Counted from the stretch's first letter, positions 8,182 to 55,335 are shown. The stretch is 60,790 nucleotides of DNA from a virus (IMGVR_UViG_3300044984_001645:1-60790); one strand, 5' to 3'. A program made the numbers and translations. The notes: generated by a model from the letters alone, not told the origin.

Positions 8182-8371
8182 AATTGAAATTTGGGCATCT
8201 ATTGGTGTCACCAAAAATCTAGGCAACTACGAATCACTTAGGCTAGATGCCGGTGCAAGAACCAAAGCTTCATCCACAGAGGATGAGAAGGCTTGGGAGA
8301 AACTGTGGGCATCCATTGATGCTCAGATTGAAGCGAAACTCCAAGAACTGGATAATGGCACTAGCAAGTAA
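8165..8371 (+). CDS. Small hypothetical phage protein
   Basis: Coupled ORF with TKNLGNYESLRLD motif. Confidence 0.65.
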   Translation: MSQENEIEIWASIGVTKNLGNYESLRLDAGARTKASSTEDEKAWEKLWASIDAQIEAKLQELDNGTSK

Positions 8372-8654
8372 CTGGAAGAGAAATGCACTCTGTGCGAGCG
8401 ATCCTAAACAGTACACTTGGTGGTCTTATGATAAAGACGACATTGCTTATGCAAAACAAGGTTGTTCTCGTTGCTCGGTTCGTAGAGAGTGCTTTCTTTC
8501 AGCTTGGGAATCAGATGAATTCTATGGTATCAATGGTGGAATCTCAGAGTTTGAGTTTCTATTAAGAACATGGAAGAAATCAAAAAAGGAATCCAATGTT
8601 AACTGGAAAAAAACTGATAGAGATCTTCAAAAAATCATGCGAGAAATCGCATAA
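8355..8654 (+). CDS. whiB: WhiB-family transcription factor (variant)
   Basis: W...ALC...AKQGCSRCSVRREC...YGINGG: four Cys plus turn motif. Confidence 0.8.
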   Translation: MALASNWKRNALCASDPKQYTWWSYDKDDIAYAKQGCSRCSVRRECFLSAWESDEFYGINGGISEFEFLLRTWKKSKKESNVNWKKTDRDLQKIMREIA

Positions 8655-11203: not shown

Positions 11204-11854
11204 ATGACATTTGCAAGTATTAAATCACTTCAAGACCTCGAAAAGAGCGTCACACCTACACAAAACAAACAAGGAACTGGAATCAAGAAGTATTTCAGCC
11301 TTTCATCAGGAGATTCATTCAAGATTCGTTTCCGTCAGGAACTTACTGAAGATGCATCATTCTTTGATGAAGAGGTTGGTACAGGAATGACAGTACCTGT
11401 CGTAACATCACCCATTAACTGGAAATGGCGAGCAGCCTCTACTTCTTCACTAGAGAAGTTTAACTATCGTTGCTGGGCAACCGAACAGGCTGTCCACGAC
11501 AAGGCTTGGAAGCCAAAGCCCCATTTGCTTATCAACATTGCTGTTGAGATTGAACCCGGAGTCTGGGAGCCTCGTGTCCTAGATACGACATTCAACCAGC
11601 GCCATATCGGTATGATTCTTATTGAGTACGCAAAGGAGTTCGGAACGATTACTGACCGTTATTACAAGTATTCACGCACAGGATCATCTGCATCAGACAC
11701 AAACTACAGTTTGATTCCTCTCTCTCAAGGAGAGATGCCTGCTGAAATCACTGAATTGCCAATGCATCAGCTTGACAACATGTACCTTACTCTCTCTTAC
11801 GATAAGCAAGAGAAGTTCTTTACAACCGGAGAAATCGCCAAAGATTCTTGGTGA
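11204..11854 (+). CDS. Single-stranded DNA-binding protein (gp32-like)
   Basis: KIRF...SRTGSSASDTNYSLIP; position after primase. Confidence 0.7.
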   Translation: MTFASIKSLQDLEKSVTPTQNKQGTGIKKYFSLSSGDSFKIRFRQELTEDASFFDEEVGTGMTVPVVTSPINWKWRAASTSSLEKFNYRCWATEQAVHDKAWKPKPHLLINIAVEIEPGVWEPRVLDTTFNQRHIGMILIEYAKEFGTITDRYYKYSRTGSSASDTNYSLIPLSQGEMPAEITELPMHQLDNMYLTLSYDKQEKFFTTGEIAKDSW

Positions 11855-12448: not shown

Positions 12449-15400
12449 GTGACTGATTTCGTACACTTACACTGTCATTCGGAGTATTCACTCCTTGATG
12501 GAATGTCAACCCCTACAGAGATTGCAAAAATCTCTAGCACGAATGGTCAATATGCTGCTGCAATTACTGATCATGGAACGATGGGCGGTGTCTTGAAGTT
12601 TCAAGATGCTTGCAATAAACAAAGCGTGAAGCCAATCTTCGGTGTTGAAGCTTACTTTGTCCCATCTATCACCAAGGATGCTCAGACCAAGTATGAACGC
12701 TTCCACTTGATTCTTCTTGCGAAGAACAATACCGGACTGCAGAAGCTGTTTAGGATTTCGCAAACTGGCTGGACAGATAACTTCTACTACAAGCCTCGTA
12801 TTGATTTCAGCTTGTTAGAAGATATGGTTGATGATGACATCATTGCGCTATCTGGTTGCATGGGTGGACCAATTTCAAAAGCTATTGAGGCTGGTAACTA
12901 TTCACGGGCAGAAGAGCTGTCTGAACGCTTCATCAAAATCTTTAAGGATGACTTTTATTACGAAGTGCAAGCTTGGAACCCAAAGAATCTAAACGATTCG
13001 CTTATCAATCTAGCGAGTTCTTACGGCAAGAAGGTTGTTGCGACAGCGGATTGTCATTTTCCTACACACGATGACCGTGGACCAGAAGAAGTTCTTCTGA
13101 TGGTTTCTCAATACCCAAGTTTAAATGCGGGTGATATTCGTGTTGCTCAGCAGAATCTTCATGTCATCCATGATGAGAACGCAAGTGTCATTGACAAGAT
13201 GAACGCTATGTATCCAGAACGCTTCTTGCGGTTTGACCATATCAATCCATACATCGCTAAAGCTGATGTTGTTCATTCATGGTTCAAAGATGCTGGCTAC
13301 GACAATGTTGAATACCTTGAGAACACAATGGAAGTCGCTGACAAATGCACAGCAACAATTGCTACGAAGAGAAACCTTCTTCCAAAGTATTCCAAAGTTC
13401 TTGATTCAAACTTTTATCTAAGAGAGATTGCAGAGTTTGCAATTCAGACAAACAAGCTTGGTCCTGAATACAAGGAGAGGCTTGATGAAGAACTCGGGAT
13501 TATTGAACAACTTGGTTTCTCTGATTACTTCCTGATTGTATGGGATTTGGTCAAGTGGGCTGATGAGAACGATATTGGTCGTGGCACAGGGCGAGGTTCT
13601 GTTGGCGGTTCTGTTCTTGCTTACTTGCTTGATATCTCCAAGGTTGATCCATTGAAGTATGGACTACTCTTCTCACGATTCATCAATCCAGAACGAAACG
13701 ACTATCCGGACATTGACTTGGACTTTGAGGATAAGCGCAGAGGTGAAGTACGGAACTATCTCCGTGACAGATGGGGTCATGACAATGTTGCTGCTATCTC
13801 AACATACGGTGGATTCAAACCTAAATCTGTAATTAAAGATATCTCTCGTGTCTATCAAGTTCCATTCGCTGAGATTAACAACATCACTCCATACTTTGAA
13901 ACATTGCAGGAGTTAGAGACATCCCCTAAGGGCAAGATCTTCTGCAGTAAGTACCCAGACATTATCAAGCTTGCAAAGAAACTTGAGGGTCGTGTTCGTA
14001 ACTCAGGGATTCATGCTGCCGGAATGGTTGTGTCATCAATTCCATTGAGCGATGTTTGTCCTGTTGAGACAAAGAAAGATACAAGTGGAGAAGGTCGTTC
14101 TATTGTTACTGCCTTTGACATGGAAGATGCAGAAGCAGTTGGTCTAATTAAAATCGATGTTCTCGGTCTAAAGACCGTTTCTGTTATTAAAGATTGCATC
14201 GCTAAGATTAAAGAAAATCGGGGCATTGATGTTAGTCAGCTTTCATTGGAATTAGACGACCCAGAAGTATTCAAGAACTTCAATGACGGTAACACAGTAG
14301 GTATCTTCCAAACAGATGCTGCTGCTTATCGTAACTTGATTGAAAGAATGGGTATTGATAACTTCAACGACCTTGTTGTGTCTAACGCACTTGTAAGACC
14401 CGGAGCCTTGTTGTCACAGGGTCAGGTTTATATTGACTGCAAGAAGGGGGTAAATGCTCCCAAGTATCCACACCCTATTGTTAAAGACATCCTTGAGGAA
14501 ACATACGGAACAGTTATCTTTCAGGAACAGCTAATGCAAATGGCTGTACTGCTTGCTGACTTCACATGGTCAGAGGCTGACAAGCTTCGTAAGATCATTG
14601 GTAAGAAGCGAGATGCTGCTGGATTTGATGAGTACAGAGAAAAGTTTGTTAACAATAAGTATATCAAGAAAGCAGCAGCCGAGAAAATCTGGGCGGAATT
14701 TGAACTAGCAGCCTTGTATATGTTTAACAAGTCTCACGCTGTTGCTTATTCTATGCTTTCTTATCAGACCATGTGGTTGAAGATTCATTACCCCATTGAG
14801 TTCATTTGGTCGCTTCTCTTTAATGAATCAGCAGGTGACAAGATTACGGCTTATTTGATGGAAGCACAAAGGGTGGGCGTAAAGATACTAGCACCTGATG
14901 TGAATCACTCGGATGAATACTTTTCGGTAAGCATCAAGGGTGAGGAGGAGTCAATTCAATTCGGATTGTCCAATGTTGCCGGATGTGGTAACTCAGCTAT
15001 CAAGGAGATTTTTGAGAAGAGACCATTTGAGTCGTATGAGGAGTTTACTAACAAATGCAGAAAGTCTGCGGTGAAGATAACTGTAAGAGAAAATCTGGAG
15101 AAGGTAGGGGCGTTTCAATCATTGGGTCATGTCTCGGCTTACGATCATGAGAAGTATTATCTTCCTGTATTGGGTTTCTCGCTTAACACTAATGGTGAAC
15201 AGAATGAAATGGATGAGTTTGTCGGGAAGCTTGCAGACTTCCACGAAATTACCTCACCATTGACGCTGGTGAAGGCTGTGGTGCGTTCTACAAAGAAAAC
15301 GCCTCAGTACCTCCGTATTGAGTTTGAAGACCATTCTGGCTCGTCTACGGTGTTTGCCGAGCGTAATACCGAACTTGCCACACGAGACTATATTTATGCT

Positions 15401-18669: not shown

Positions 18670-19602
18670 ATGCTAGTAGTAGATAAAAGAAAAGGCGACC
18701 ATATGCCTATTCATGAGGTTATTCCAACACCAAGTATCGGTTTGAATCGTGCGCTTGGGGGAGGGCTTAACTCAGGGGCAACCCATTTGTTCTGGGGAAC
18801 ACCATCAGTTGGTAAAACAACAATGTGTTTCCGGATTCTTGCGGAAGCTCAAAGACGAGGATACCGACCAGTCATCATTGACTCGGAGTATTCTTACAAT
18901 GATCAATATGCTGCCAAGTGCGGTATCAATATTGATGATGTTGTTGTAATTCAATCAACAATTGTAGAAGAGATTATGAAGGCTCTCATTGGTTATTTGA
19001 ATAACGATGTTGAGAAGCACATCTTTTTGTTTGACTCCCTGTCAAATATCATCAAAGAAGAGTTTTATGACAAGCCAGAAGGTGGTAAAGCAATGGGGCT
19101 TCAATCTCGTTCGCAGGGCTACCTTCTCCAGAAGCTTGTTAATTACCTTCACAAGGAACGGAACATCATGCTATTCGTAGCACACCAGACCGTTGATCTT
19201 AGTGGAATGTTCGCTGTGACAAAGGCGAAGATGGGTAACACAGTGCATCATAATATGCACAACATTGTAAAACTGTTCCTCTCAATGTCTCAAAAGGAAA
19301 TGGAGCGTGATGACACTCACACCATTACCTCACAGAGGGCTGTGTGGACAATTGAAAAGACAAAACAGATTCCAACTATCGGTGCGCAAGGTTATTACTA
19401 TGTTCTTCCACAAGAGGGAAAGATTGATACTGACCGGGAGCTTATTGATATTGCGGTTGAGATGGATATCATTCAACGCAGAGGTGCATGGTATTCCTAT
19501 GGCACTGAGAAGTGGAACGGAATGACAGCTATTAATTTGTCTGAAGAAGTAAGAGATGAAATTGCAACTTTGATCTTGGGTCGTGAGTTTCAAGAGGTGT
19601 AA
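18670..19602 (+). CDS. recA: RecA/UvsX-like recombinase
   Basis: LNRALGGG, GTPSVGKTT, IDSE, FDSL, IIQRRGAWYSYG. Confidence 0.9.
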   Translation: MLVVDKRKGDHMPIHEVIPTPSIGLNRALGGGLNSGATHLFWGTPSVGKTTMCFRILAEAQRRGYRPVIIDSEYSYNDQYAAKCGINIDDVVVIQSTIVEEIMKALIGYLNNDVEKHIFLFDSLSNIIKEEFYDKPEGGKAMGLQSRSQGYLLQKLVNYLHKERNIMLFVAHQTVDLSGMFAVTKAKMGNTVHHNMHNIVKLFLSMSQKEMERDDTHTITSQRAVWTIEKTKQIPTIGAQGYYYVLPQEGKIDTDRELIDIAVEMDIIQRRGAWYSYGTEKWNGMTAINLSEEVRDEIATLILGREFQEV

Positions 19603-35700: not shown

Positions 35701-36069
35701 ATGTTCAATATGGATGACTTTGAAAATATAAAAAAACCTAGTGAAAGAGAGGAGGCTCCAGATTATATGATTGAAGACCACGATTTCCTAAATCAGATGA
35801 TGACGATTGCAAGAATCATTAAAGAAACTGATTTTAGTAATCACGAAAGTCGTGCATCATTCATTATGCATATGATTAATATGTCAATTGATAACCCCGA
35901 TGAAATCCATGAGAAATCATTGGATGTTGTTAGTGCATTATCTTCTCATATTTGCATGATGATGATGACAATCAATGGTGGAAAAGAAACATATCTATCC
36001 AGTTATGATGATTCTGTTATTCAACCAATGATAGATAATGGTCCAAACATTCCAATCTGGGATAATTAA
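35701..36069 (+). CDS. Hypothetical protein
   Basis: Packed ORF. Confidence 0.6.
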   Translation: MFNMDDFENIKKPSEREEAPDYMIEDHDFLNQMMTIARIIKETDFSNHESRASFIMHMINMSIDNPDEIHEKSLDVVSALSSHICMMMMTINGGKETYLSSYDDSVIQPMIDNGPNIPIWDN

Positions 36070-36070
36070 T

Positions 36071-36424
36071 ATGCCAACAATTACAATTAATTGGTTAGAT
36101 GAAGCTGCTTGTTTAGGACAAGGAGCACATTTATTTTATGCCGATACTGTTTATACAGCAGAAACAAAAAAGATCATAGCCAAAGCAAAAACATTTTGTA
36201 AAAGCTGTCCTGTTGTTGCTGATTGCTTACAGTATTCAATTAACAATGATGAAAGGTTTGGGGTTTGGGGTTCTTTTTCTTCAAAAGAAAGAGCATCAAT
36301 CCGAAATCATTTGAAAACCAATGAGATAACAAAAGGACAAGCCGAAGCAATGGTTAATAAAACAGTATTGCAAGTAAAAGATGCATTCAGAAATACAATA
36401 TTCGTGGAGGGTAATAATGCCTGA
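36071..36424 (+). CDS. whiB: WhiB-family transcription factor
   Basis: WLDEAAC...AKTFCKSCPVVADCLQYS...ERFGVWGS...ER. Confidence 0.92.
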   Translation: MPTITINWLDEAACLGQGAHLFYADTVYTAETKKIIAKAKTFCKSCPVVADCLQYSINNDERFGVWGSFSSKERASIRNHLKTNEITKGQAEAMVNKTVLQVKDAFRNTIFVEGNNA

Positions 36425-42284: not shown

Positions 42285-42356
42285 GCTTCTATAGTTAAAG
42301 GGATATAACTACGGACTTCTAATCCGTTATTTTAGGTTCGAATCCTAATGGAAGCA
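42285..42356 (+). tRNA. tRNA-Arg(TCT)
   Basis: GCTTCTA acceptor, ACGGA-CTTCTAA-TCCGT anticodon arm, TTAGG-TTCGAAT-CCTAA T-arm. Confidence 0.9.
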
Positions 42357-42508
42357 CTAAGAGATCAATTATGAATGCCTGCATTTATAGTTGGTCTCTT
42401 TTTGTATACACAAGAACAAATAAAGAAAGGCACAGAGATTTGAGCGCATACTCAATTTATCCGAAAAGTAAACATAAACAAGATGGCGTAACGCTAAAGG
42501 AAACAACA

Positions 42509-48959: not shown

Positions 48960-49166
48960 ATGGACACGATTGTGAGCCAAAAGAAGAAAGTGGAGTTATT
49001 TATGACCCAAGTAAAAGAAGCTATTAATATGACCCATAGTCATTATTGGAAATGTACGGATGTTCCGGGCTATTTCTTATGTGAATGTGGGGCTATGTCC
49101 AGACACAATAGAGAAACCGGATCAAAAGAGATTTGGAGCCTTGAATCGGAAGGTGGCGAAATATGA
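48960..49166 (+). CDS. Hypothetical protein (start uncertain)
   Basis: HSHYWKC...CECG. Confidence 0.45.
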   Translation: MDTIVSQKKKVELFMTQVKEAINMTHSHYWKCTDVPGYFLCECGAMSRHNRETGSKEIWSLESEGGEI

Positions 49167-49334
49167 TACTAATAGACTTTTTGGCAATGATATTGCTATA
49201 TGCAGTCCATACGGTTATTCAGCCGGTAAAGAAGGAAGATAGTCTAGGGGAAATTCTATTCATATTCTTGGCGGGTTTCGGGTTCCTATTCTTATTCCTA
49301 GATGTAATTGAAAAGATAAAGGGATTGTTCTGAG

Positions 49335-49523
49335 ATGATAAAGAAGAAGATTGATCCAAGTGATCGGCGGGAATATTTCTATGGAGAAAGTGTACATGAA
49401 TATATCGGGGTTCTTGTAGAGATGATTCTAAAGATAGAAGAGTCTAAGGAGATAGGGAATCTAGATAAGGATCGTATAAGAGTTCTATTATCTGATTCTA
49501 TTTCTATTCTGAACACTTATTAA
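49335..49523 (+). CDS. Hypothetical protein
   Basis: Last plausible ORF of the + block. Confidence 0.45.
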   Translation: MIKKKIDPSDRREYFYGESVHEYIGVLVEMILKIEESKEIGNLDKDRIRVLLSDSISILNTY

Positions 49524-49672
49524 TAGAAGAAGAGATGTCTTCGACATACACAGGTATATACACATATCTGTGGATTAGATTGTGGATAAGCTCTAAAACT
49601 AGTAGCTTATGTATGTTAAGCGCTCCACATTACGAAAATATATACCAATCGTGTGGTAGTAACATGACAATT

Positions 49673-49718
49673 AAAAGCCTTAGAGGTAAGTTAAATCTTA
49701 TCTTTAGGGCTTTTTTTT
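49673..49718 (+). terminator. Intrinsic terminator ending the + strand block
   Basis: AAAAGCCTTAGAGGTAAG...CTTATCTTTAGGGCTTTT plus T run. Confidence 0.75.
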
Positions 49719-49803
49719 GTGCCTAAAATTAGCATAAAGTAAAGAATAATCGTTGATTTTGTGCAATTATTAGCCAAAAACATGCTATTTTGTATCAAAA
49801 CAT

Positions 49804-49817
49804 AGAACATATGTTCG
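49804..49817. promoter_or_regulatory. LexA (SOS/Cheo-type) box candidate
   Basis: AGAAC-ATAT-GTTCG vs consensus CGAAC-N4-GTTCG. Confidence 0.5.
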
Positions 49818-50498
49818 TATCATGTGGATAACTTCGGATATGTACTAAAATTAAGGTTAAAGTTAAAGAAAAACAGCCTACATTGATGAGCGGAATACAT
49901 ATTCCCTATCTATCTTCTATCTATATCCCTATCTAGAAGCTAAGACAATACCTAACCCGGAACTTTGCGGGAAAAGCTCATATCTTGAGACGAGATAAGA
50001 CCCCCTTACCCTATTTATATCTCTAGGGATAAAGTAAATAACAATATTAGAAGGTATATACCCCGATAGTTAATGTGTTAGGGAATTAGGTAGAGAATGT
50101 GATAGTAGGTAACCCAAATGCCGGCGATAATAATGCGAAAGTTACGGGGTTGTAATTTGAATTGGTTAATCTCCTATATAGAGAGAGATACACCTAGGGG
50201 AATAGATAAACCAATAGCCCCGCCTAACTCCTCAGACCTCATAATTTGAAAGGGATACTGATCCCTTACCCTTATCTTAAAAGTAAATTGAAATTTAAAG
50301 ATAATAGTAGAGAGTTTCATCATGATTGGTAAATACATTAAATTAATATGAAAGATAAAGTTAAATTTAATTGGTGTCCAAAATGCTAAAGCATTTATGG
50401 TACCCCAACCATAATTTGAAACCTATAGTAGTCCCTTACCGTATAGGTATCGTTTGGAGAATGTATTAAATTAATAATAAAGATAAAGGTAAACGAAA

Positions 50499-50535
50499 CT
50501 GGTGTTCAAGTGCTTTAGCACGCCCAGAACACCAG
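50499..50535. repeat. Inter-cassette hairpin H0
   Basis: CTGGTGTTC-AA-GTGC-TTTA-GCAC-GCCCA-GAACACCAG. Confidence 0.8.
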
Positions 50536-50546
50536 CGATTTTGGGC

Positions 50547-50577
50547 AAAAAAAAAGGTACCCTTTCGGGTACCTTTT
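50547..50577 (-). terminator. Intrinsic terminator, cassette 1
   Basis: - strand GGTACCC-GAAA-GGGTACC plus U9. Confidence 0.85.
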
Positions 50578-50609
50578 CTAAAATCCTTTCGATTTTAATT
50601 TAACTTTCG

Positions 50610-50960
50610 TTAAGCATTCGCCTTACGAGAGATTACCATTTGACCATTATCCAACCAATTAATTTGGATTTCAATTCCCAATTTCTCGGAAACACTTTCG
50701 GCACGATTTCGGTATCGCATTTTGTCGGCTTGGACTTTGGTTTGTTCCTGATTAAGGTTTACCGTAGCCTCACTCCAAATGAATGCGTCACCGATTTCGT
50801 TCGGGTCAAGTGACAAAATATCCGTTGCCAAAACTGGGTTTTCGTATGGAGGTTTTCCACGCTTAACCAATTTGGATTGGATTTCGGAAAGGTTAATTTT
50901 GACATTAACCTTTTTTGACGGGTCGCCTGCGTTATCGCTCGGCTTAGTGGTGTTACTCAC
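50610..50960 (-). CDS. Cassette 1 ORF: small protein, paralog of cassette 2 (leaderless GTG start)
   Basis: LVKRGKPPYENPVLATDILSLDP identical to ORF 51271; GTG 6 nt after the -10. Confidence 0.8.
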   Translation of the reverse strand: MSNTTKPSDNAGDPSKKVNVKINLSEIQSKLVKRGKPPYENPVLATDILSLDPNEIGDAFIWSEATVNLNQEQTKVQADKMRYRNRAESVSEKLGIEIQINWLDNGQMVISRKANA

Positions 50961-50966
50961 ATACAT

Positions 50967-50998
50967 ATAATACTCATGGCTTGAAACTATGTATTAAA
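50967..50998 (-). promoter_or_regulatory. Cassette promoter P1
   Basis: TTTAAT-acatagtttcaagccatgag-TATTAT. Confidence 0.75.
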
Positions 50999-51156
50999 TA
51001 ATGCCATATATTAGACCCTGAACGGCGGGCGCACGAGTTCTGCTGAAGCTCCCCGCACGCCCGCCATGATTTGAATAGTATTTTGAGACACTACGGGGTT
51101 CCTTACCATGATTTGGAAATGTGAGTGAAATTTTATTCATAGCTACACCGGTAGAA

Positions 51157-51195
51157 GCTGGCGTTCAAGTGCTTTAGCACGACCCGAACGCCAGC
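51157..51195. repeat. Inter-cassette hairpin H1b
   Basis: GCTGGCGTTC-AA-GTGC-TTTA-GCAC-GACCC-GAACGCCAGC; compensatory change relative to H0. Confidence 0.8.
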
Positions 51196-51205
51196 GATTT
51201 TGGAT

Positions 51206-51234
51206 AAAAAAAAAGCCCGCCCCGAAGGGCGAGC
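51206..51234 (-). terminator. Intrinsic terminator, cassette 2
   Basis: UUCG-loop stem plus U9 on - strand. Confidence 0.8.
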
Positions 51235-51270
51235 CATAAAAAGCCTTCCGACTTTTTTATTGGGGGGATA

Positions 51271-51615
51271 TTATTGAGGTGAGCCGAGCGAGATAATCAT
51301 CTGCCCGTCATCTTGCCAGTTGATAGCGATAACGATACCGCACTTCTCAGCAACGCTGAGGGCACGATTACGGTACTTCATCTTCTCTGCCTGAACCTTG
51401 TCCTGTGGCGCTGTGAGGTTCACAGTCGCTTCTGACCAGTAGAAGGCATCGCCCTCAACTGTTGGGTCAAGTGAGAGAATATCAGTCGCTAGGACTGGGT
51501 TCTCATAGGGGGGCTTGCCTCGCTTGACGAGATTAGCCTTTATGCTATTTAGGTTCACCTTTTTATTGGTGCTGGTTGTCGGTTCCGCTTTGCGGTCACC
51601 TGTGCTTGTTGCCAT
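51271..51615 (-). CDS. Cassette 2 ORF: small protein, paralog of cassette 1 (leaderless ATG)
   Basis: Strong similarity to ORF 50610; ATG 6 nt after the -10. Confidence 0.82.
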   Translation of the reverse strand: MATSTGDRKAEPTTSTNKKVNLNSIKANLVKRGKPPYENPVLATDILSLDPTVEGDAFYWSEATVNLTAPQDKVQAEKMKYRNRALSVAEKCGIVIAINWQDDGQMIISLGSPQ

Positions 51616-51621
51616 ATAGAT

Positions 51622-51653
51622 ATAATACTGATGCCTTCCGAATATGTATTCAA
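51622..51653 (-). promoter_or_regulatory. Cassette promoter P2
   Basis: TTGAAT-acatattcggaaggcatcag-TATTAT. Confidence 0.8.
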
Positions 51654-51790
51654 TATGGGAATATATTAGACCCAGTTTGGCTGGTGCTTAAGTGAGCTGA
51701 AGCTCCCCCGCACACCAGACATTTCCGGGATCATGAGACCATGTACTCAATTTCGTCATAAAGGCTTTCCATGTAGGAGTGGTGTTAGGC

Positions 51791-51827
51791 AAAAAAAAAG
51801 GAGGAGGTCTTGCGACCCCCTCCCTTT
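51791..51827 (-). terminator. Intrinsic terminator, cassette 3
   Basis: GCAA-loop stem plus U9 on - strand. Confidence 0.8.
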
Positions 51828-51839
51828 CGGAGTGTGTGC

Positions 51840-52235
51840 CTAGGCTATGGCTAGGAACTCAACGATTGCCTGTGAGTAAAGGTGACCCTCTACCTTCATG
51901 TGTTCGCCTAGCAATGCTTCGGCATCTCTCACTGCTGGTAGCAATGTCTCCTGAATGGTGAACAATGTCTCGTAGTAGGTAGCCTTCGTGACTGTCTCGC
52001 TATCGTCACGGGTCACTGTCGTGATGACCGTCTGAGTAGCGTCTAGGAGTGTGTCTCCTACTGTTCGGGCTTGTTCTAGGAAGAACATATAATTGTCTCC
52101 TGAGTCGTGGTCAGATTGAATCATGACCTTAATGAATGCCTTAGTGAATATCTCCACGAAGGTGTTGAGTGTGCTAGAGAACACATTCAGACTAAGTATC
52201 TGAACTGGCTCGCAGGGTTCAAGTAGTGGTTCCAA
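51840..52235 (-). CDS. Cassette 3 ORF: hypothetical protein
   Basis: RBS GAAAGG then TTG at 52235. Confidence 0.7.
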   Translation of the reverse strand: MEPLLEPCEPVQILSLNVFSSTLNTFVEIFTKAFIKVMIQSDHDSGDNYMFFLEQARTVGDTLLDATQTVITTVTRDDSETVTKATYYETLFTIQETLLPAVRDAEALLGEHMKVEGHLYSQAIVEFLAIA

Positions 52236-52279
52236 TGTTACCTTTCCGCAGTTCGTTAGTTCACTGCTTCCATACATAC

Positions 52280-52311
52280 ATAATACATATGCCTTTAGAA
52301 TATGTATTTAA
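52280..52311 (-). promoter_or_regulatory. Cassette promoter P3
   Basis: TTAAAT-acatattctaaaggcatatg-TATTAT. Confidence 0.75.
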
Positions 52312-52390
52312 TTTGGGAATATATCCATACGCTGTTCGTTTGGTGTGAAAGGGGACTTAAGATCCCCTGCACTCCAACGATTTCATAGGC

Positions 52391-52424
52391 AAAGAAAAAG
52401 GGCAGGTACCGAAGTACCTGCCCT
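52391..52424 (-). terminator. Intrinsic terminator, cassette 4
   Basis: GGGCAGGTAC-UUCG-GTACCTGCCC plus U tract. Confidence 0.85.
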
Positions 52425-52438
52425 CATCTTGGGGGTTG

Positions 52439-52744
52439 TTACAGATGACCGTAACGATGACCCTTCTCACGCTCGGGTTCATTGTAATGACGGACTGGCA
52501 AGATAACCCGAGGCTCATTCTTATGTTCAGTATGACCCTCAAGGCATTGCTGGCACTCACACACGATTGTGTAGCGTGTGTACATCTCCAACTGGCGGAG
52601 TGTGAAGTATGTCTGGTCTTCAAAGTCCTTCCAGCCGAGTATCTTCATGATACGCAAGGCATGGCTAAGTCCCCTCTTATCTATGACACGCATTTGCCAG
52701 TAGGTATCCCAACCATCGGGCAATTGCTGATACATCATTCTCAT
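52439..52744 (-). CDS. Cassette 4 ORF: hypothetical protein (CECQQC)
   Basis: RBS GAAAGGA. Confidence 0.72.
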   Translation of the reverse strand: MRMMYQQLPDGWDTYWQMRVIDKRGLSHALRIMKILGWKDFEDQTYFTLRQLEMYTRYTIVCECQQCLEGHTEHKNEPRVILPVRHYNEPEREKGHRYGHL

Positions 52745-52791
52745 GTGTTCCTTTCATTGTGGGCTACTTGGGTTTCACCCTCACTAACAAT

Positions 52792-52823
52792 ATAATACCC
52801 ATGCCTTTGGAATATGTATTCAA
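52792..52823 (-). promoter_or_regulatory. Cassette promoter P4
   Basis: TTGAAT-acatattccaaaggcatggg-TATTAT. Confidence 0.8.
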
Positions 52824-52901
52824 TATGAGAGTATCCCTACACCGTGTTCGTTTGGTGTAAAAGGGGGCTAAACCCCCCTCGTGCACCAACGAAATCAGGG
52901 C

Positions 52902-52935
52902 AAACAAAAAGGGCAGGTACCGAAGTACCTGCCCT
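52902..52935 (-). terminator. Intrinsic terminator, cassette 5
   Basis: Stem-loop identical to the cassette 4 terminator. Confidence 0.85.
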
Positions 52936-52948
52936 GATTGCTGGGGGT

Positions 52949-53164
52949 CTAACCGTAGATTTCTTCAATCAACGAATCGTATGTGTTGTTTGCGATGAGA
53001 ATGTATGTCTCAAACAGTACCCAGTGAGTCTGGTTCTTCATCGCCTCAAGGAACTTGAAGAACAACTCTTCATAGTCCCCGATGGCTAGGGTGCTCTGGA
53101 GAGTTGTAAGAAGTTCTGTGTACCTCTTATCGACTTGTTCTTTCATGTCTGTCGTTATTTCCAT
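52949..53164 (-). CDS. Cassette 5 ORF: acidic hypothetical protein
   Basis: RBS GAAAGG. Confidence 0.72.
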   Translation of the reverse strand: MEITTDMKEQVDKRYTELLTTLQSTLAIGDYEELFFKFLEAMKNQTHWVLFETYILIANNTYDSLIEEIYG

Positions 53165-53208
53165 TATTACCTTTCGGATAGTTACTTGGGTTTCACTACC
53201 ACATCTAT

Positions 53209-53240
53209 ATCATACTGATGGCTTTAGAATATGTATTCAA
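53209..53240 (-). promoter_or_regulatory. Cassette promoter P5
   Basis: TTGAAT-acatattctaaagccatcag-TATGAT. Confidence 0.8.
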
Positions 53241-53331
53241 TTTGAGAATATACCCATATCATGTTCGTTTGGTGTGAAAGGGCTTAAGCTCACCCTCGCA
53301 CTCCAACGATTTCAGCTTCATAAATAAAGGC

Positions 53332-53363
53332 AAAAAAAAAGAGCCAGCCCGAAGGCTGACTCT
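53332..53363 (-). terminator. Intrinsic terminator, cassette 6
   Basis: UUCG-loop stem plus U9. Confidence 0.8.
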
Positions 53364-53383
53364 CTTTCTTGGGGGGTGTGTGA

Positions 53384-53659
53384 CTACACGAACTCAGGGT
53401 ACATGTAGTGTTTGTCAGGGTAGCACTTGTAGGCACCGTTCATCTTGAACCGAGGGTACCAGCAGATGCCCCATGTCTGCGCCCACTTCTGTGCGAGGTT
53501 GTGGGCTTGCTGTGCATTGACACATGGGATAGTCAGGATGTGACTGTCTGAGGAGTCTCCCGTAGGCGATGACATCACTATGACTACATGAAACTCATGA
53601 GCCTCAATGTGGTTAGGTGTCCCAGCGTAAACGCTAGGTGGTTGTGTTGAGTAGGACAT
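53384..53659 (-). CDS. Cassette 6 ORF: hypothetical protein (alternative in-frame leaderless start at 53701)
   Basis: RBS GAAAGG before ATG 53659; SSPTGDSSDSHI motif. Confidence 0.72.
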   Translation of the reverse strand: MSYSTQPPSVYAGTPNHIEAHEFHVVIVMSSPTGDSSDSHILTIPCVNAQQAHNLAQKWAQTWGICWYPRFKMNGAYKCYPDKHYMYPEFV

Positions 53660-53707
53660 GGTGCCTTTCCAGCCCGTCAGTTGTTCGGGGCTTGCTTCCA
53701 TGTCTAT

Positions 53708-53739
53708 ATAATACTGAAGGCTTAGATATATGTATTCAA
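53708..53739 (-). promoter_or_regulatory. Cassette promoter P6
   Basis: TTGAAT-acatatatctaagccttcag-TATTAT. Confidence 0.8.
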
Positions 53740-53763
53740 TGTGAGAATGTATAGACCCCTCAC

Positions 53764-53807
53764 ACGCTGGAGTTAAAGAAAGCTTAAGCTTTCCAGTACT
53801 CCAGCGT
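53764..53807. repeat. Inter-cassette hairpin H6
   Basis: ACGCTGGAGT-TAAA-GAAAGCTTAAGCTTTC-CAGT-ACTCCAGCGT. Confidence 0.85.
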
Positions 53808-53822
53808 TTTCATTAGGGGCAC

Positions 53823-53848
53823 AAAAAAGGCACCCCCGAAGGGGTGCC
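53823..53848 (-). terminator. Intrinsic terminator, cassette 7
   Basis: GGCACCCC-UUCG-GGGGTGCC plus U6. Confidence 0.8.
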
Positions 53849-53862
53849 CATTTGTTTGCGTT

Positions 53863-54135
53863 CTATCTCTTTTCGTATTTGTCGGAGAAGTGAAGTCCAA
53901 GCCCTACGAATAAGCCTAACGAACCTACGCTACACACTACCCATAGGATAGCCGACCAGTTGGAAGTGGTGTCCATACCTTGAAGGTACCATGTAGGTGC
54001 TAGTGCACTTGTCGGAGCAAGTACCATACAGATAGTGCTCATCAAGCCTAACTCTGTGAAGGAAAGGAATAAGGCGACTAGGGCAGTTCCTAGAACGAAG
54101 GCGGATATTACAGCGAGCACGATATATGTCATCAT
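53863..54135 (-). CDS. Cassette 7 ORF: small membrane protein (about 3 TM segments)
   Basis: RBS GAAAGG; three hydrophobic stretches. Confidence 0.75.
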   Translation of the reverse strand: MMTYIVLAVISAFVLGTALVALFLSFTELGLMSTICMVLAPTSALAPTWYLQGMDTTSNWSAILWVVCSVGSLGLFVGLGLHFSDKYEKR

Positions 54136-54181
54136 GATTGCCTTTCTACGAAAGTTACTTGGGGTTCACTTCCATATCTAT

Positions 54182-54213
54182 ATAGTACCTATGGCTTGAA
54201 TATATGTATTCAA
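54182..54213 (-). promoter_or_regulatory. Cassette promoter P7
   Basis: TTGAAT-acatatattcaagccatagg-TACTAT. Confidence 0.8.
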
Positions 54214-54451
54214 TAAATGAAATATATGAGTCCCTACACTGCGGGCGTAAAGCGTAAGCTTAAGCTGTGCACACCCGCCATTGACTCACCAAACAGAGGA
54301 AAACGAAAAACAAAAAAAAGACGCAGTAGCATGCTACGAATATATACTCAAATTTTCTAAAAAACGGGGTCGGCTGCAAGTGCCGGGTTTTGGTTTAGAA
54401 AACGGGGGAGATGGGGGTTGAATGGGGATTGCTGCTAGAGCGGAGCTGCTG

Positions 54452-54524
54452 CTCCCAGAGTAGGGCTTGAACCTACGACACACGGATTAACAGTCCGTTG
54501 CTCTGCCAACTGAGCTATCTGGGA
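54452..54524 (-). tRNA. tRNA-Asn(GTT)
   Basis: TCCCAGA acceptor, AGCTCAGTTGGCAGAGC D-arm, ACGGA-CTGTTAA-TCCGT, GTAGG-TTCAAGC-CCTAC. Confidence 0.93.
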
Positions 54525-54564
54525 TAGAAGTATTATCTAAAGTTTGGGGGATAAAGTTCGGAAC

Positions 54565-55335
54565 TCAATTTGTATTCACTTCTACATTTATCTTCAGAAT
54601 CTTATTGGAGGAATGTTGAGCTACATTGTCTTGTCCTATGTTAGTGATTTCATAACCTAGAGACTCAACATAGGAGAGCAGCTCTTGTCTCCGGGGTTCA
54701 AACCATTCCTTGTTCGCCCACGCTTCAAAGAGAATAGGTGGGAACCCATTTCGCTCAATAGTATTTTTTGCACCCACGAGAACTGCGAGTTCCAATCCTT
54801 CTACATCGATTTTGATGAGCTTGATATCGTTCATTTCAAGTGAGTCCAATGTTTGAACACTAATTAATTCCGTGTTACCACCGGTGGTGCACTCATAGTC
54901 GTTCTGGCGCACCTCGTCATCAAGGCTAAAGGCTCCAATATTCAATTCTGTGGAATAGTCCGGTAACTGAATATAAAATGAATCTGGCTCGTATGACAAG
55001 CCGAAGTTCTTGGCGAACACATTGTCACACCTGTTAAGCAAGATGTTGGAGCAAAGCTGATAAAACACAATTCTTTGCGGTTCAAAGGCGTGGAATGTAA
55101 AGTGGGGGTATCTCTTTGCCAATGGCACACAAAAGCTGCCTACATTTGATCCAATGTCTAATACATTACCAATCTGGTTGATCCTCGCATAATGGTCTAA
55201 AAACATTGAGGCAATATAGAGAACATGTGGTTCATGCCCAAGTTGACTCTTTAAAGCATCTGAAACAATATCATCCTTGTCAAAGAGGAAGAAGCGACAA
55301 TCGCCTCCGTCATATACTGAAGATGATGGGATCAT
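54565..55335 (-). CDS. FkbM-family methyltransferase
   Basis: VLDIGSNVG, HAFEPQ, IKIDVEGLELAVLVGA. Confidence 0.9.
   Translation of the reverse strand: MIPSSSVYDGGDCRFFLFDKDDIVSDALKSQLGHEPHVLYIASMFLDHYARINQIGNVLDIGSNVGSFCVPLAKRYPHFTFHAFEPQRIVFYQLCSNILLNRCDNVFAKNFGLSYEPDSFYIQLPDYSTELNIGAFSLDDEVRQNDYECTTGGNTELISVQTLDSLEMNDIKLIKIDVEGLELAVLVGAKNTIERNGFPPILFEAWANKEWFEPRRQELLSYVESLGYEITNIGQDNVAQHSSNKILKINVEVNTN

Follow-up and report, generated by a model that had tools for sequence, protein, structure and literature searches.

A covarying stem-loop family set at a fixed distance from promoter-like boxes in the small-gene cassette array of an uncultured lake-water phage

The viral record IMGVR_UViG_3300044984_001645 is a linear sequence of 60,790 nt, estimated to be 58% complete, from the IMG/VR collection. 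We analyzed the whole of it and refer to it as the window, or as G000 where genomes are compared. Between positions 50371 and 54278, it carries ten imperfect palindromes. We found that these belong to a previously undescribed family of stem-loops of about 40 nt and that they lie in a hyperplastic array of cassettes, each a self-contained unit of expression. The record itself is a fragment of the roughly 100-kb genome of an uncultured phage from lake water. The covariation of the arms and the difference between the two strands make it very probable that the stem-loops are a structured element specific to the sense strand of the genes. The best explanation overall, which we put forward as plausible though short of an even chance, is that they are RNA hairpins made when transcription reads through a terminator and that they insulate the next promoter.

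Results

Ten stem-loops in the window

The first-pass annotation of the window had listed ten imperfect palindromes. We found that all ten are present and that each of them folds. With RNA parameters, the − strand folds range from −15.3 to −31.7 kcal/mol, with z scores of −2.0 to −7.8 against dinucleotide shuffles, and the + strand folds have z scores of −0.8 to −7.3 against such shuffles. The apexes had also been read correctly: eight of the ten contain exactly GCTNNAGC, and the remaining two are ACTTAAGA and GCTAAACC. In the 60,790-nt record, GCTNNAGC occurs at 20 sites, 8 of which are within 50,385-54,265, and a reversed control pattern occurs at 6. The compensatory difference claimed between two of the hairpins, CTGGTGTTC/GAACACCAG versus CTGGCGTTC/GAACGCCAG (50499-50535 and 51157-51195), is real.

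The hairpins are read on the − strand, as are the genes around them. Seven are of a type that we call type B, or promoter proximal, and stand 23 to 27 nt upstream of a conserved promoter-like box. In the order of transcription, these are 54241-54278, the first of the array, which comes after tRNA-Asn and a terminator (−17.7 kcal/mol; E value of 9e-11 with the covariance model described below); 53764-53807 (z score, −7.8); 53265-53309; 52847-52893 and 52336-52380, which have the variant − strand apexes GGTTTAGCC and TCTTAAGT, respectively; 51681-51718, the best match to the model (E value, 7e-17), which spans −66 to −103 from a leaderless start at 51,615; and 51024-51065 (−31.7 kcal/mol on the − strand versus −21.5 kcal/mol on the + strand). 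Two more, 51157-51195 and 50499-50535, are of type A, a separate subtype of nearly perfect palindromes: they come straight after a terminator, no working promoter adjoins them, and their apex is the reverse complement of the type B apex. The former is a near-perfect palindrome with the − strand apex GCTAAAGC, about 12 nt past the T run of its terminator, and the latter is directly behind its terminator. The last hairpin of the array, 50371-50408, is followed by a degenerate promoter box and non-coding repeats, with no clear open reading frame (ORF). The placement proposed earlier, downstream of a terminator and upstream of the next promoter, is supported, with corrections for 51157-51195, 50499-50535, and 50371-50408.

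In form, the hairpins are not intrinsic terminators. None of the ten is followed by a U tract, their sense-strand 3′ flanks are G-rich, and none of the ten was among the terminator-like sites found. Separate canonical terminators stand upstream. When positions 49,000 to 55,000 were compared with Rfam, tRNA alone reached the gathering threshold, and the subthreshold matches fell on terminators.

Covariation across related phages

A methyltransferase gene adjoining the array led us to L008 (G001), a 100-kb relative that is 96% complete and has a syntenic array with nine hairpins. We built a covariance model from these 19 hairpins (10 from the window and 9 from L008). It returned 10 sites in the window and 9 in L008, all within the arrays; weaker matches on the opposite strand are echoes of the identical palindromes. 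A degenerate pattern of the hairpin found 32 stretches on 24 viral contigs. We then searched 31 sources with the model, namely, 29 of the pattern stretches (three pieces of L008 were left out) and two further loci, L007 and L009. The model matched 20 of the 31 and had no match in 11. The statistics below come from 18 sources with 98 sites and 95 distinct hairpins; L020, L023, L024, and L035 were omitted, their hit scores being equal to those of L013 or L021.

We found no DNA match, near or distant, among about 50,000 GenBank phage records. In prokaryote genomes, at least 120 loci had the hairpin pattern; the matches listed have a single site each, fall in unrelated taxa, and include no arrays, as would be expected of chance matches. 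The exact promoter-box pattern gave two single hits in viral contigs, which look unrelated. A non-exhaustive full-text search of the literature, supplements not included, found no description of hairpins that covary and stand at a constant distance ahead of cassette promoters; it also turned up the intergenic repeats of halovirus HF2.

The outer stem of the family contains an invariant GGNG in the 5′ arm and CNCC in the 3′ arm. The apex, GCTT(C/A/T)AGC, is nearly invariant, and the inner stem is free in sequence while its pairing is kept. Stems are 14 to 20 bp long, and many members form a near-continuous helix of 18 to 20 bp with an internal loop or bulge. From anchor to anchor, the distance between the arms varies from 32 to 42 nt, which fits a fold and not a rigid dimer site on duplex DNA. 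We aligned 91 sense-oriented hairpins (4 of the 95 were dropped for missing anchor motifs) and found that a 19-pair structure had 81.2% of its cells paired, versus 69.9 ± 0.7 in shuffles, with none of 500 shuffles as high. The covariation score was 0.352, versus 0.185 in shuffles (again, 0 of 500 as high), and 241 cells were changed on both sides, versus 99. Slid controls were 28 to 47% paired. In 14 of the 19 pairs there are changes on both sides, and single positions alternate among G-C, G·U, and A-U pairs. A compensatory change (ATGC/GCAT to ACGC/GCGT) separates hairpin 50371-50408 from its L008 orthologue.

The annotation had proposed that selection acts on the structure and had named a covariance model across related phages as a check. 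The covariation over 91 hairpins from related phages, which no shuffle equaled, supports selection on the structure and not on the sequence of the arms. The annotation had also said that the palindromes are not canonical attC sites; consistently with this, their invariant columns are GG.G and C.CC instead.

The gene-sense strand is the more stable one

We took the orientation of each array from its context (a box downstream and a T run upstream), independently of the model, and found one consistent direction per locus, save for a single opposite site in L013. The gene-sense strand was the more stable one in 78 of the 95 hairpins and the antisense strand in 16, with one tie. The mean advantage of the sense strand was 3.7 kcal/mol with RNA parameters. 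In the minimum-free-energy folds, G·U pairs made up 176 of 1,569 pairs (about 11%) on the sense strand versus 46 of 1,460 on the antisense strand. When the two genomes from which the model was built were left out, the sense strand was still favored (63 versus 14). The bias differs by subtype: it is 52 to 5 in type B and 16 to 1 in hairpins with a variant apex, and type A is divided evenly, 10 to 10. Base composition on the sense strand is balanced.

As a yardstick, we used 48 intrinsic terminators from these arrays, in which the sense strand was favored 38 to 10 and G·U pairs numbered 41 versus 20. We concluded that sense-strand selection in the promoter-proximal hairpins is at least as strong as in neighboring known RNA elements. 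This bias, together with the many G·U pairs, argues for a role at the RNA level rather than the DNA level, and we consider RNA, rather than single-stranded DNA, the probable form. The annotation had favored selection on DNA, as in a single-stranded DNA hairpin or a cruciform. A cruciform or a duplex site should be symmetric, and the excess of the sense strand in stability (78 of 95) and in G·U pairs (176 versus 46) gives that proposal no support. Its description of the hairpins as lying outside the predicted transcripts is right for the promoter-to-terminator units; the strand bias nevertheless implies a sense RNA or exposed single-stranded DNA of the sense strand.

The hairpin is held at a fixed distance from a box

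We searched the sequence 15 to 49 nt after the C.CC anchor and found a box-like match behind 76 of the 95 hairpins. In 70 of the 76, the box starts 28 to 30 nt past the anchor, and in 45, it starts exactly 29 nt past it. This rigid spacing holds across phages with almost no sequence in common in their spacers and with boxes that have diverged, for example, to TTGAGCATAC, TTTAGTGCAT, and TTGAGTGCG. The distance from the upstream T run to the hairpin is variable (2 to 110 nt). The rigid spacing suggests that the hairpin acts in concert with a factor that occupies the box.

Predicted promoters, genes, and terminators of the cassettes

On the − strand, the order within a cassette is hairpin, spacer of about 25 nt, promoter, small ORF, and intrinsic terminator. 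The promoter consists of a TTGAATAC-type box and a −10 element, TAnnnT, which in many cases is extended by TGn. The hairpin stands at the 5′ end of the regulatory module, which is that of the downstream gene.

Seven promoter-like modules were found on the − strand at 54213-54177, 53739-53705, 53240-53203, 52823-52784, 52311-52273, 51653-51620, and 50998-50964. They share a TTGAATACAT-type box, and the TAnnnT element starts 27 nt past the start of the box. When we scanned with this pattern, 7 of 8 matches were inside the array, where 0.6 would be expected by chance. A profile made from 55 promoter regions gave seven hits with E values of <0.2 in the window, all in the array and each with a hairpin; its sole match beyond the array (49,851-49,831) is weak and has no hairpin. 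We rejected a canonical sigma-70 promoter (a −35 element, 17 nt, and a −10 element), as the spacer is 20 nt and a standard scan for spacers of 16 to 18 nt misses all seven. Most −10 elements of the relatives are of the extended form, with TGn ahead of the hexamer. In the window, the paralogous 114- and 118-aa genes have their start codons 6 nt past the −10 hexamer, and in L008 and L016 the start codons of their homologues are 6 to 7 nt after the −10 element. This leaderless geometry argues that the promoter is real and fixes the start of transcription.

Eight intrinsic terminators, each a GC stem with a T run on the − strand, stand at 54338-54322, 53849-53828, 53370-53333, 52935-52910, 52425-52398, 51828-51795, 51235-51214, and 50578-50548. 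The first seven came from a terminator scan, and the last came from a list of palindromes, in which it is entered as 50552-50577, and from a T run read in the sequence. Between the promoters and the terminators are seven ORFs, also on the − strand, which encode a membrane-like product of 90 aa (54135-53863) and products of 91 aa (53659-53384), 71 aa (53164-52949), 101 aa (52744-52439), 132 aa from a TTG start (52238-51840), 114 aa (51615-51271), and 118 aa (50966-50610, with GTG at 50960 the likely start). The last two are paralogues. None of the seven had a PHROG family at an E value of ≤0.01 or a Pfam match above the cutoff. We found no protein match to the 114-aa protein in GenBank phages and no relative of the 101-aa protein in viral contigs.

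Two extra copies of the promoter box have no −10 element, and we call them U boxes. They are on the − strand at 51741-51750, upstream of hairpin 51681-51718, and at 50456-50470. We rejected the U box as a promoter, as no copy that we read has a −10-like hexamer at the right distance. In relatives, type A hairpins are followed by a U box 28 to 30 nt downstream and then by a type B hairpin. A further variant is seen in L041 and L008, in which G(T/C)C comes after the T run of the terminator and precedes a solitary hairpin 3′ arm that resembles AACACCAGC (L041, 588-560, 1120-1095, and 2328-2305 on the − strand; L008, approximately 11590-11612, 12990-13010, and 13525-13550). It looks like a type A hairpin minus its 5′ arm and apex, and a conserved CCAATCCAT..CGGTACGG.CAG stretch stands between it and the U box.

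The paralogous pair in the window (51271-51615 and 50610-50966, − strand) belongs to a cassette family of about 110 aa, present in two or three copies per array. Other copies are at 13213-13485, 13728-14060, and 14364-14714 in L008 and at 1150-1473, 1762-2088, and 2375-2749 in L016. Its members have leaderless starts and two motifs, the AT-hook-like K/R-R-G-K/R-P and the basic K..R.R. The family matches none in Pfam or PHROG, and it is the only cassette family with a type A hairpin behind it. An AlphaFold model of the 114-aa family (predicted local distance difference test score, 80) had no PDB fold match at an E value of ≤0.001 and only Atlas hits of <0.8; nothing in it connected the family with the hairpins.

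Turnover of cassettes between relatives

We compared the window with L008 and found that the first cassette gene has been replaced and that three cassettes are different, with the breaks at the modules. Both phages have a 145-aa gene and the two paralogues, at about 83% DNA identity, and L008 carries one additional cassette between them. Hairpin 51681-51718 resembles the one before the orthologous gene in L008 and not the one after the shared upstream gene. This match, despite the intervening cassette, indicates that the hairpin belongs to the module of the downstream gene. Relatives of the 91-aa cassette protein were found at 23 other viral loci, none with a hairpin within 1.5 kb, so that the module is a local wrapper and not part of the gene.

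Contigs from other lake samples (four runs) also break at the repeated modules, with joints in promoters and terminators: 52286 with 53226, 52749 to 52241, 52969 to 53333, and 53366 to 52427. These joints were taken at 85% likeness and are therefore weak, and they show rearranged relatives and not a mechanism. In 5 of 15 pairs, the long block of homology starts at a hairpin. We rejected the ends of such blocks as a means of locating crossovers, since the hairpin and the promoter are conserved module edges in any case.

The annotation had suggested attC- or REP-like recombination substrates or nicking sites and had proposed a search for a tyrosine recombinase or HUH nuclease elsewhere in the genome. 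No tyrosine recombinase (PF00589) was found in the window (58% complete) or in L008 (96% complete), with a control that detected the family in 14 of 14 genomes. Likewise, neither phage had a Y1 transposase (PF01797; other HUH families were not searched), and no Pfam serine recombinase or resolvase was found in the record or in its 96%-complete relative. With none of these enzymes found and with copies confined to one array per genome, the suggestion is unsupported. A RecA-like recombinase gene (18,670-19,602) suits homologous shuffling of the cassettes.

The phage and its probable host

The genes of the window switch from the + strand to the − strand at about 49.7 kb. They include a DnaE-type polymerase, a DnaB-like helicase, a primase, and tail proteins. 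Two genes for WhiB-family regulators are present on the + strand (8,247-8,654 and 36,038-36,424). In a control with the WhiB profile, Corynebacterium was the only one of 14 genomes that matched; an actinobacterial host is therefore likely, and the two WhiB genes together with the apparently leaderless cassette mRNAs suggest the same. The unusual promoter boxes could be sites of action for the phage WhiB pair. Searches of the record and of L008 found no gene for a phage sigma factor (PF04542) or for RNase III (PF14622). The array region is contained in 24 sequencing runs, all of which are labeled lake-water metagenome.

G+C content is 43 to 46% across the array (50000 to 54000) versus about 35% in the adjoining + strand genes. 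By eye, the ORFs of some related arrays (L013, 3900-5300; L022, 220-260, 770-800, and 1610-1650) look markedly more G+C-rich than their modules. G+C-rich ORFs and stems without a T run, as in L013 and L022, are typical of high-GC Gram-positive hosts, which hints that hosts differ within the phage group.

The tRNA-Asn gene (54451-54524) shares the strand of the array and immediately precedes the first hairpin, and a tRNA-Arg(TCT) gene (42285-42357, + strand) is within the + strand block. Beyond the last hairpin, about 600 nt of non-coding DNA (49730-50340) separates the convergent gene blocks. Repeats of several families are found in it, namely, three copies of a CATAATTTGAAA...CCCTTACC unit, 22-mers that are AT-rich, and, near 49,900-49,960, iteron-like runs of ATAGATAG. 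This stretch could be an origin, a packaging site, or small RNA genes.

Discussion

Proposed insulation of promoters from read-through

We propose, more tentatively than the RNA hairpin itself, an insulator or stop mechanism for the family. RNA polymerase that reads through the upstream terminator would transcribe the hairpin, which, once in the nascent RNA, would act as a second, hairpin-dependent stop or pause. The read-through polymerase would meet the occupant of the box, either a promoter-bound polymerase or a regulator, just as the hairpin forms. In an elongating polymerase, approximately 8 to 12 nt separate a hairpin from the 3′ end of the RNA, and approximately 15 to 20 nt separate the active site from the front edge. 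The 25 to 27 nt from the foot of the stem to the box match these approximate dimensions. Each of the tightly packed, strongly promoted cassettes would in this way be insulated from upstream read-through. As a by-product, the repeated modules of hairpin-promoter and terminator would supply homology for the gain, loss, and swap of cassettes, as in the promoter-early stem-loops (PeSLs) of T4-type phages. In L013 and L022, the GC stems upstream have no T run, which makes transcription through the hairpin plausible.

Several observations weigh against this proposal. No RNA run is recorded among the 24 runs that contain the region, and hairpin transcription is a deduction only. Good T-run terminators precede the hairpins of the window and may let little polymerase through to them. 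Release would be disfavored by the lack of a U tract in the hairpins and by the G-rich bases that come first after them. The rigid spacing is to a DNA motif and could equally mean a complex at the DNA level. U boxes, which have no −10 element, also lie 28 to 30 nt after hairpins, and the unit is thus not simply a hairpin and a promoter. The conserved sequence of the 5′ arm and apex suggests a specific binding protein. With DNA parameters, the sense strand is still favored (62 versus 32); G·T pairs are tolerated in single-stranded DNA, too; and the type A hairpins have no strand bias.

Alternative explanations

The same sense-strand and G·U evidence would serve some other RNA element, and we give this a modest chance. 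Such an element could be a processing or stabilizing site of the RNase III type, for which the helix of 18 to 20 bp with an internal loop or bulge in many members would be suitable, or a boxB/put-like site that loads an antiterminator or another RNA-binding protein; the apex and the lower stem are conserved, as a surface for recognition by a protein might be. Neither explains the rigid distance of 28 to 30 nt to the box or why every such promoter has a hairpin. Processing is unneeded where each cassette has its own promoter and terminator, and no RNase III gene was found in either phage, although cleavage could be left to the enzyme of the host. The boxB site is a 5-bp stem with a GNRA-like pentaloop, and the apex and stem found here are unlike it.

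It is improbable that the hairpin, folded in single-stranded DNA of the sense strand (for example, in the lagging-strand template), forms with the box 29 nt away a substrate for recombination or nicking like those of integrons or of IS200/IS605. A strand-specific fold would suit such a substrate, as would the conserved base of the stem, its variable middle, and its one-sided unpaired bases. The flanking motif lies at its fixed distance even where there is no −10 element, cassette content varies between relatives, and 5 of the 15 long homology blocks start within a hairpin. However, block ends at hairpins are expected anyway of conserved module edges, the joints in contigs from other samples are in promoters and terminators and not in hairpins, and none of the 23 viral loci with homologues of the 91-aa gene has a hairpin within reach. 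G·U pairs, which number up to 5 of 19 in one stem, would be costly in DNA, and no tyrosine recombinase, Y1 transposase, or resolvase was found in the record or in the 96%-complete relative. A narrower form of this explanation is still less probable, and we regard it as a long shot: the hairpin, the 29 nt, and the TTGAATAC-type box would make up an integron-like cassette recombination site, served by a recombinase of no known family, with the hairpin recognized as single-stranded DNA and the box as the point of cutting or exchange. That would explain the boxes without a −10 element at a constant distance and the different cassette sets of close relatives.

We think it equally improbable that the palindrome is a duplex DNA operator or a cruciform at approximately −65 to −105, bound by a regulator such as a WhiB-sigma complex or the AT-hook-like cassette protein, that tunes the promoter. 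The invariant GGNG/CNCC half-sites, the near-palindromic apex, the rigid spacing to the promoter box, and the type A copies, near-perfect palindromes without strand bias, are what such a site would have. Actinophages, too, carry repeated palindromes of unknown role, such as the 17-bp repeat of Cluster O and the ESAS of Cluster K. On the other hand, the half-sites are 32 to 42 nt apart, the inner stems covary without sequence conservation, and the type B hairpins are biased 52 to 5, each sense G·U pair being an A·C mismatch on the other strand.

Last, the modules are repeated and recombine, and a palindrome without a function of its own might hitchhike with a duplicating promoter module and be homogenized by gene conversion; this is very improbable, since gene conversion homogenizes and cannot yield compensatory changes in 14 of 19 pairs, and pairing is kept across phages with diverged spacers and promoter boxes. 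Another RNA site, a single-stranded DNA site, and a duplex operator or cruciform each account for part of the data, and none does better on strand bias and spacing jointly than an RNA hairpin that insulates the next promoter.

Comparison with known systems

The closest parallel is with the PeSLs (Arbiol 2010, PMC2839356; Comeau 2014, PMC4122927). In both systems, a stem-loop lies just upstream of a strong promoter, leader, and start codon, the genes are small and mostly ORFans in a hyperplastic region, the modules are where close relatives differ by insertion, deletion, or replacement, and there are “half” modules that carry the upstream promoter box alone (PMC4122927). In contrast, the stem-loop of a PeSL, as described there, is the terminator, and here a separate canonical terminator is followed by an extra hairpin without a U tract. 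A conserved stem base and apex, a strict distance of 28 to 30 nt to the box, and a strong sense-strand G·U bias are further differences. Recombination between adjacent PeSL modules is reported to produce mini-circles. The PeSLs in those papers belong to T4-type myoviruses, and this phage, with its DnaE-type polymerase, DnaB-like helicase, and two WhiB genes, is not T4-like (T4 core genes were not searched for one by one). We conclude that the array is a PeSL-like hyperplastic region and that the hairpins are an extra component that PeSLs lack.

Phages of Actinobacteria have inverted repeats in many copies, near promoters or gene starts, which resemble the hairpins in these respects and whose role is given as unknown. 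The 17-bp repeat of Cluster O is reported to have invariant arms and to be scattered through the genome without orientation (PMC4351075), and the ESAS of Cluster K is about 50 bp long and has a putative promoter inside, its inverted repeats spanning the promoter itself (PMC11373665). Here, the arms covary, the copies are in a single array, and their orientation follows transcription.

Integron attC sites are also imperfect palindromes between gene cassettes, with structure more conserved than sequence, a conserved stem base, a variable center, unpaired bases on one side, and strand-specific folding. The R-box consensus of attC is GTTRRRY. That consensus is absent here, the core being GGNG/CNCC, and no IntI or other tyrosine recombinase was found (PF00589 in both phages). 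Cassettes with attC are promoterless and have the site at the 3′ end of the gene; in contrast, those described here have their own promoters and terminators, and the hairpin goes with the downstream gene and not the upstream one. Unlike the dispersed intergenic copies of REP/RAYT and IS200-IS605 elements, 10 of 10 hairpins in G000 and 9 of 9 in G001 are in one array. The RNase III hairpins among the early genes of T7, with about two turns of double-stranded RNA, lie inside one long transcript, with no promoters or terminators between the genes, and have no conserved apex. They share with the present family an intergenic position on the sense strand of an early gene block, a length of about 20 bp, and an internal loop, and they differ in that the cassettes here have their own promoters and terminators and that the apex is conserved.

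Implications

Arrays of tiny early genes hold much of the repertoire with which phages take over the host and counter its defenses. To our knowledge, how arrays that are constantly reshuffled stay expressible is understood only for T4-type phages, through PeSLs. The family described here provides a second, independent array design, from freshwater phages that are uncultured and that, judged by their genes, infect an actinobacterial host. It adds a new, well-supported structured element, with 95 distinct copies, that is not in Rfam and that by sequence similarity is absent from about 50,000 GenBank phage records. The strict promoter geometry makes hairpin-assisted blocking of read-through at an occupied promoter testable in vitro. 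If the hairpins are insulators, they would offer for high-GC Gram-positive hosts a natural part in which terminator, insulator, and promoter are compactly combined. If they act as DNA instead, they would represent a new system of cassette mobility.

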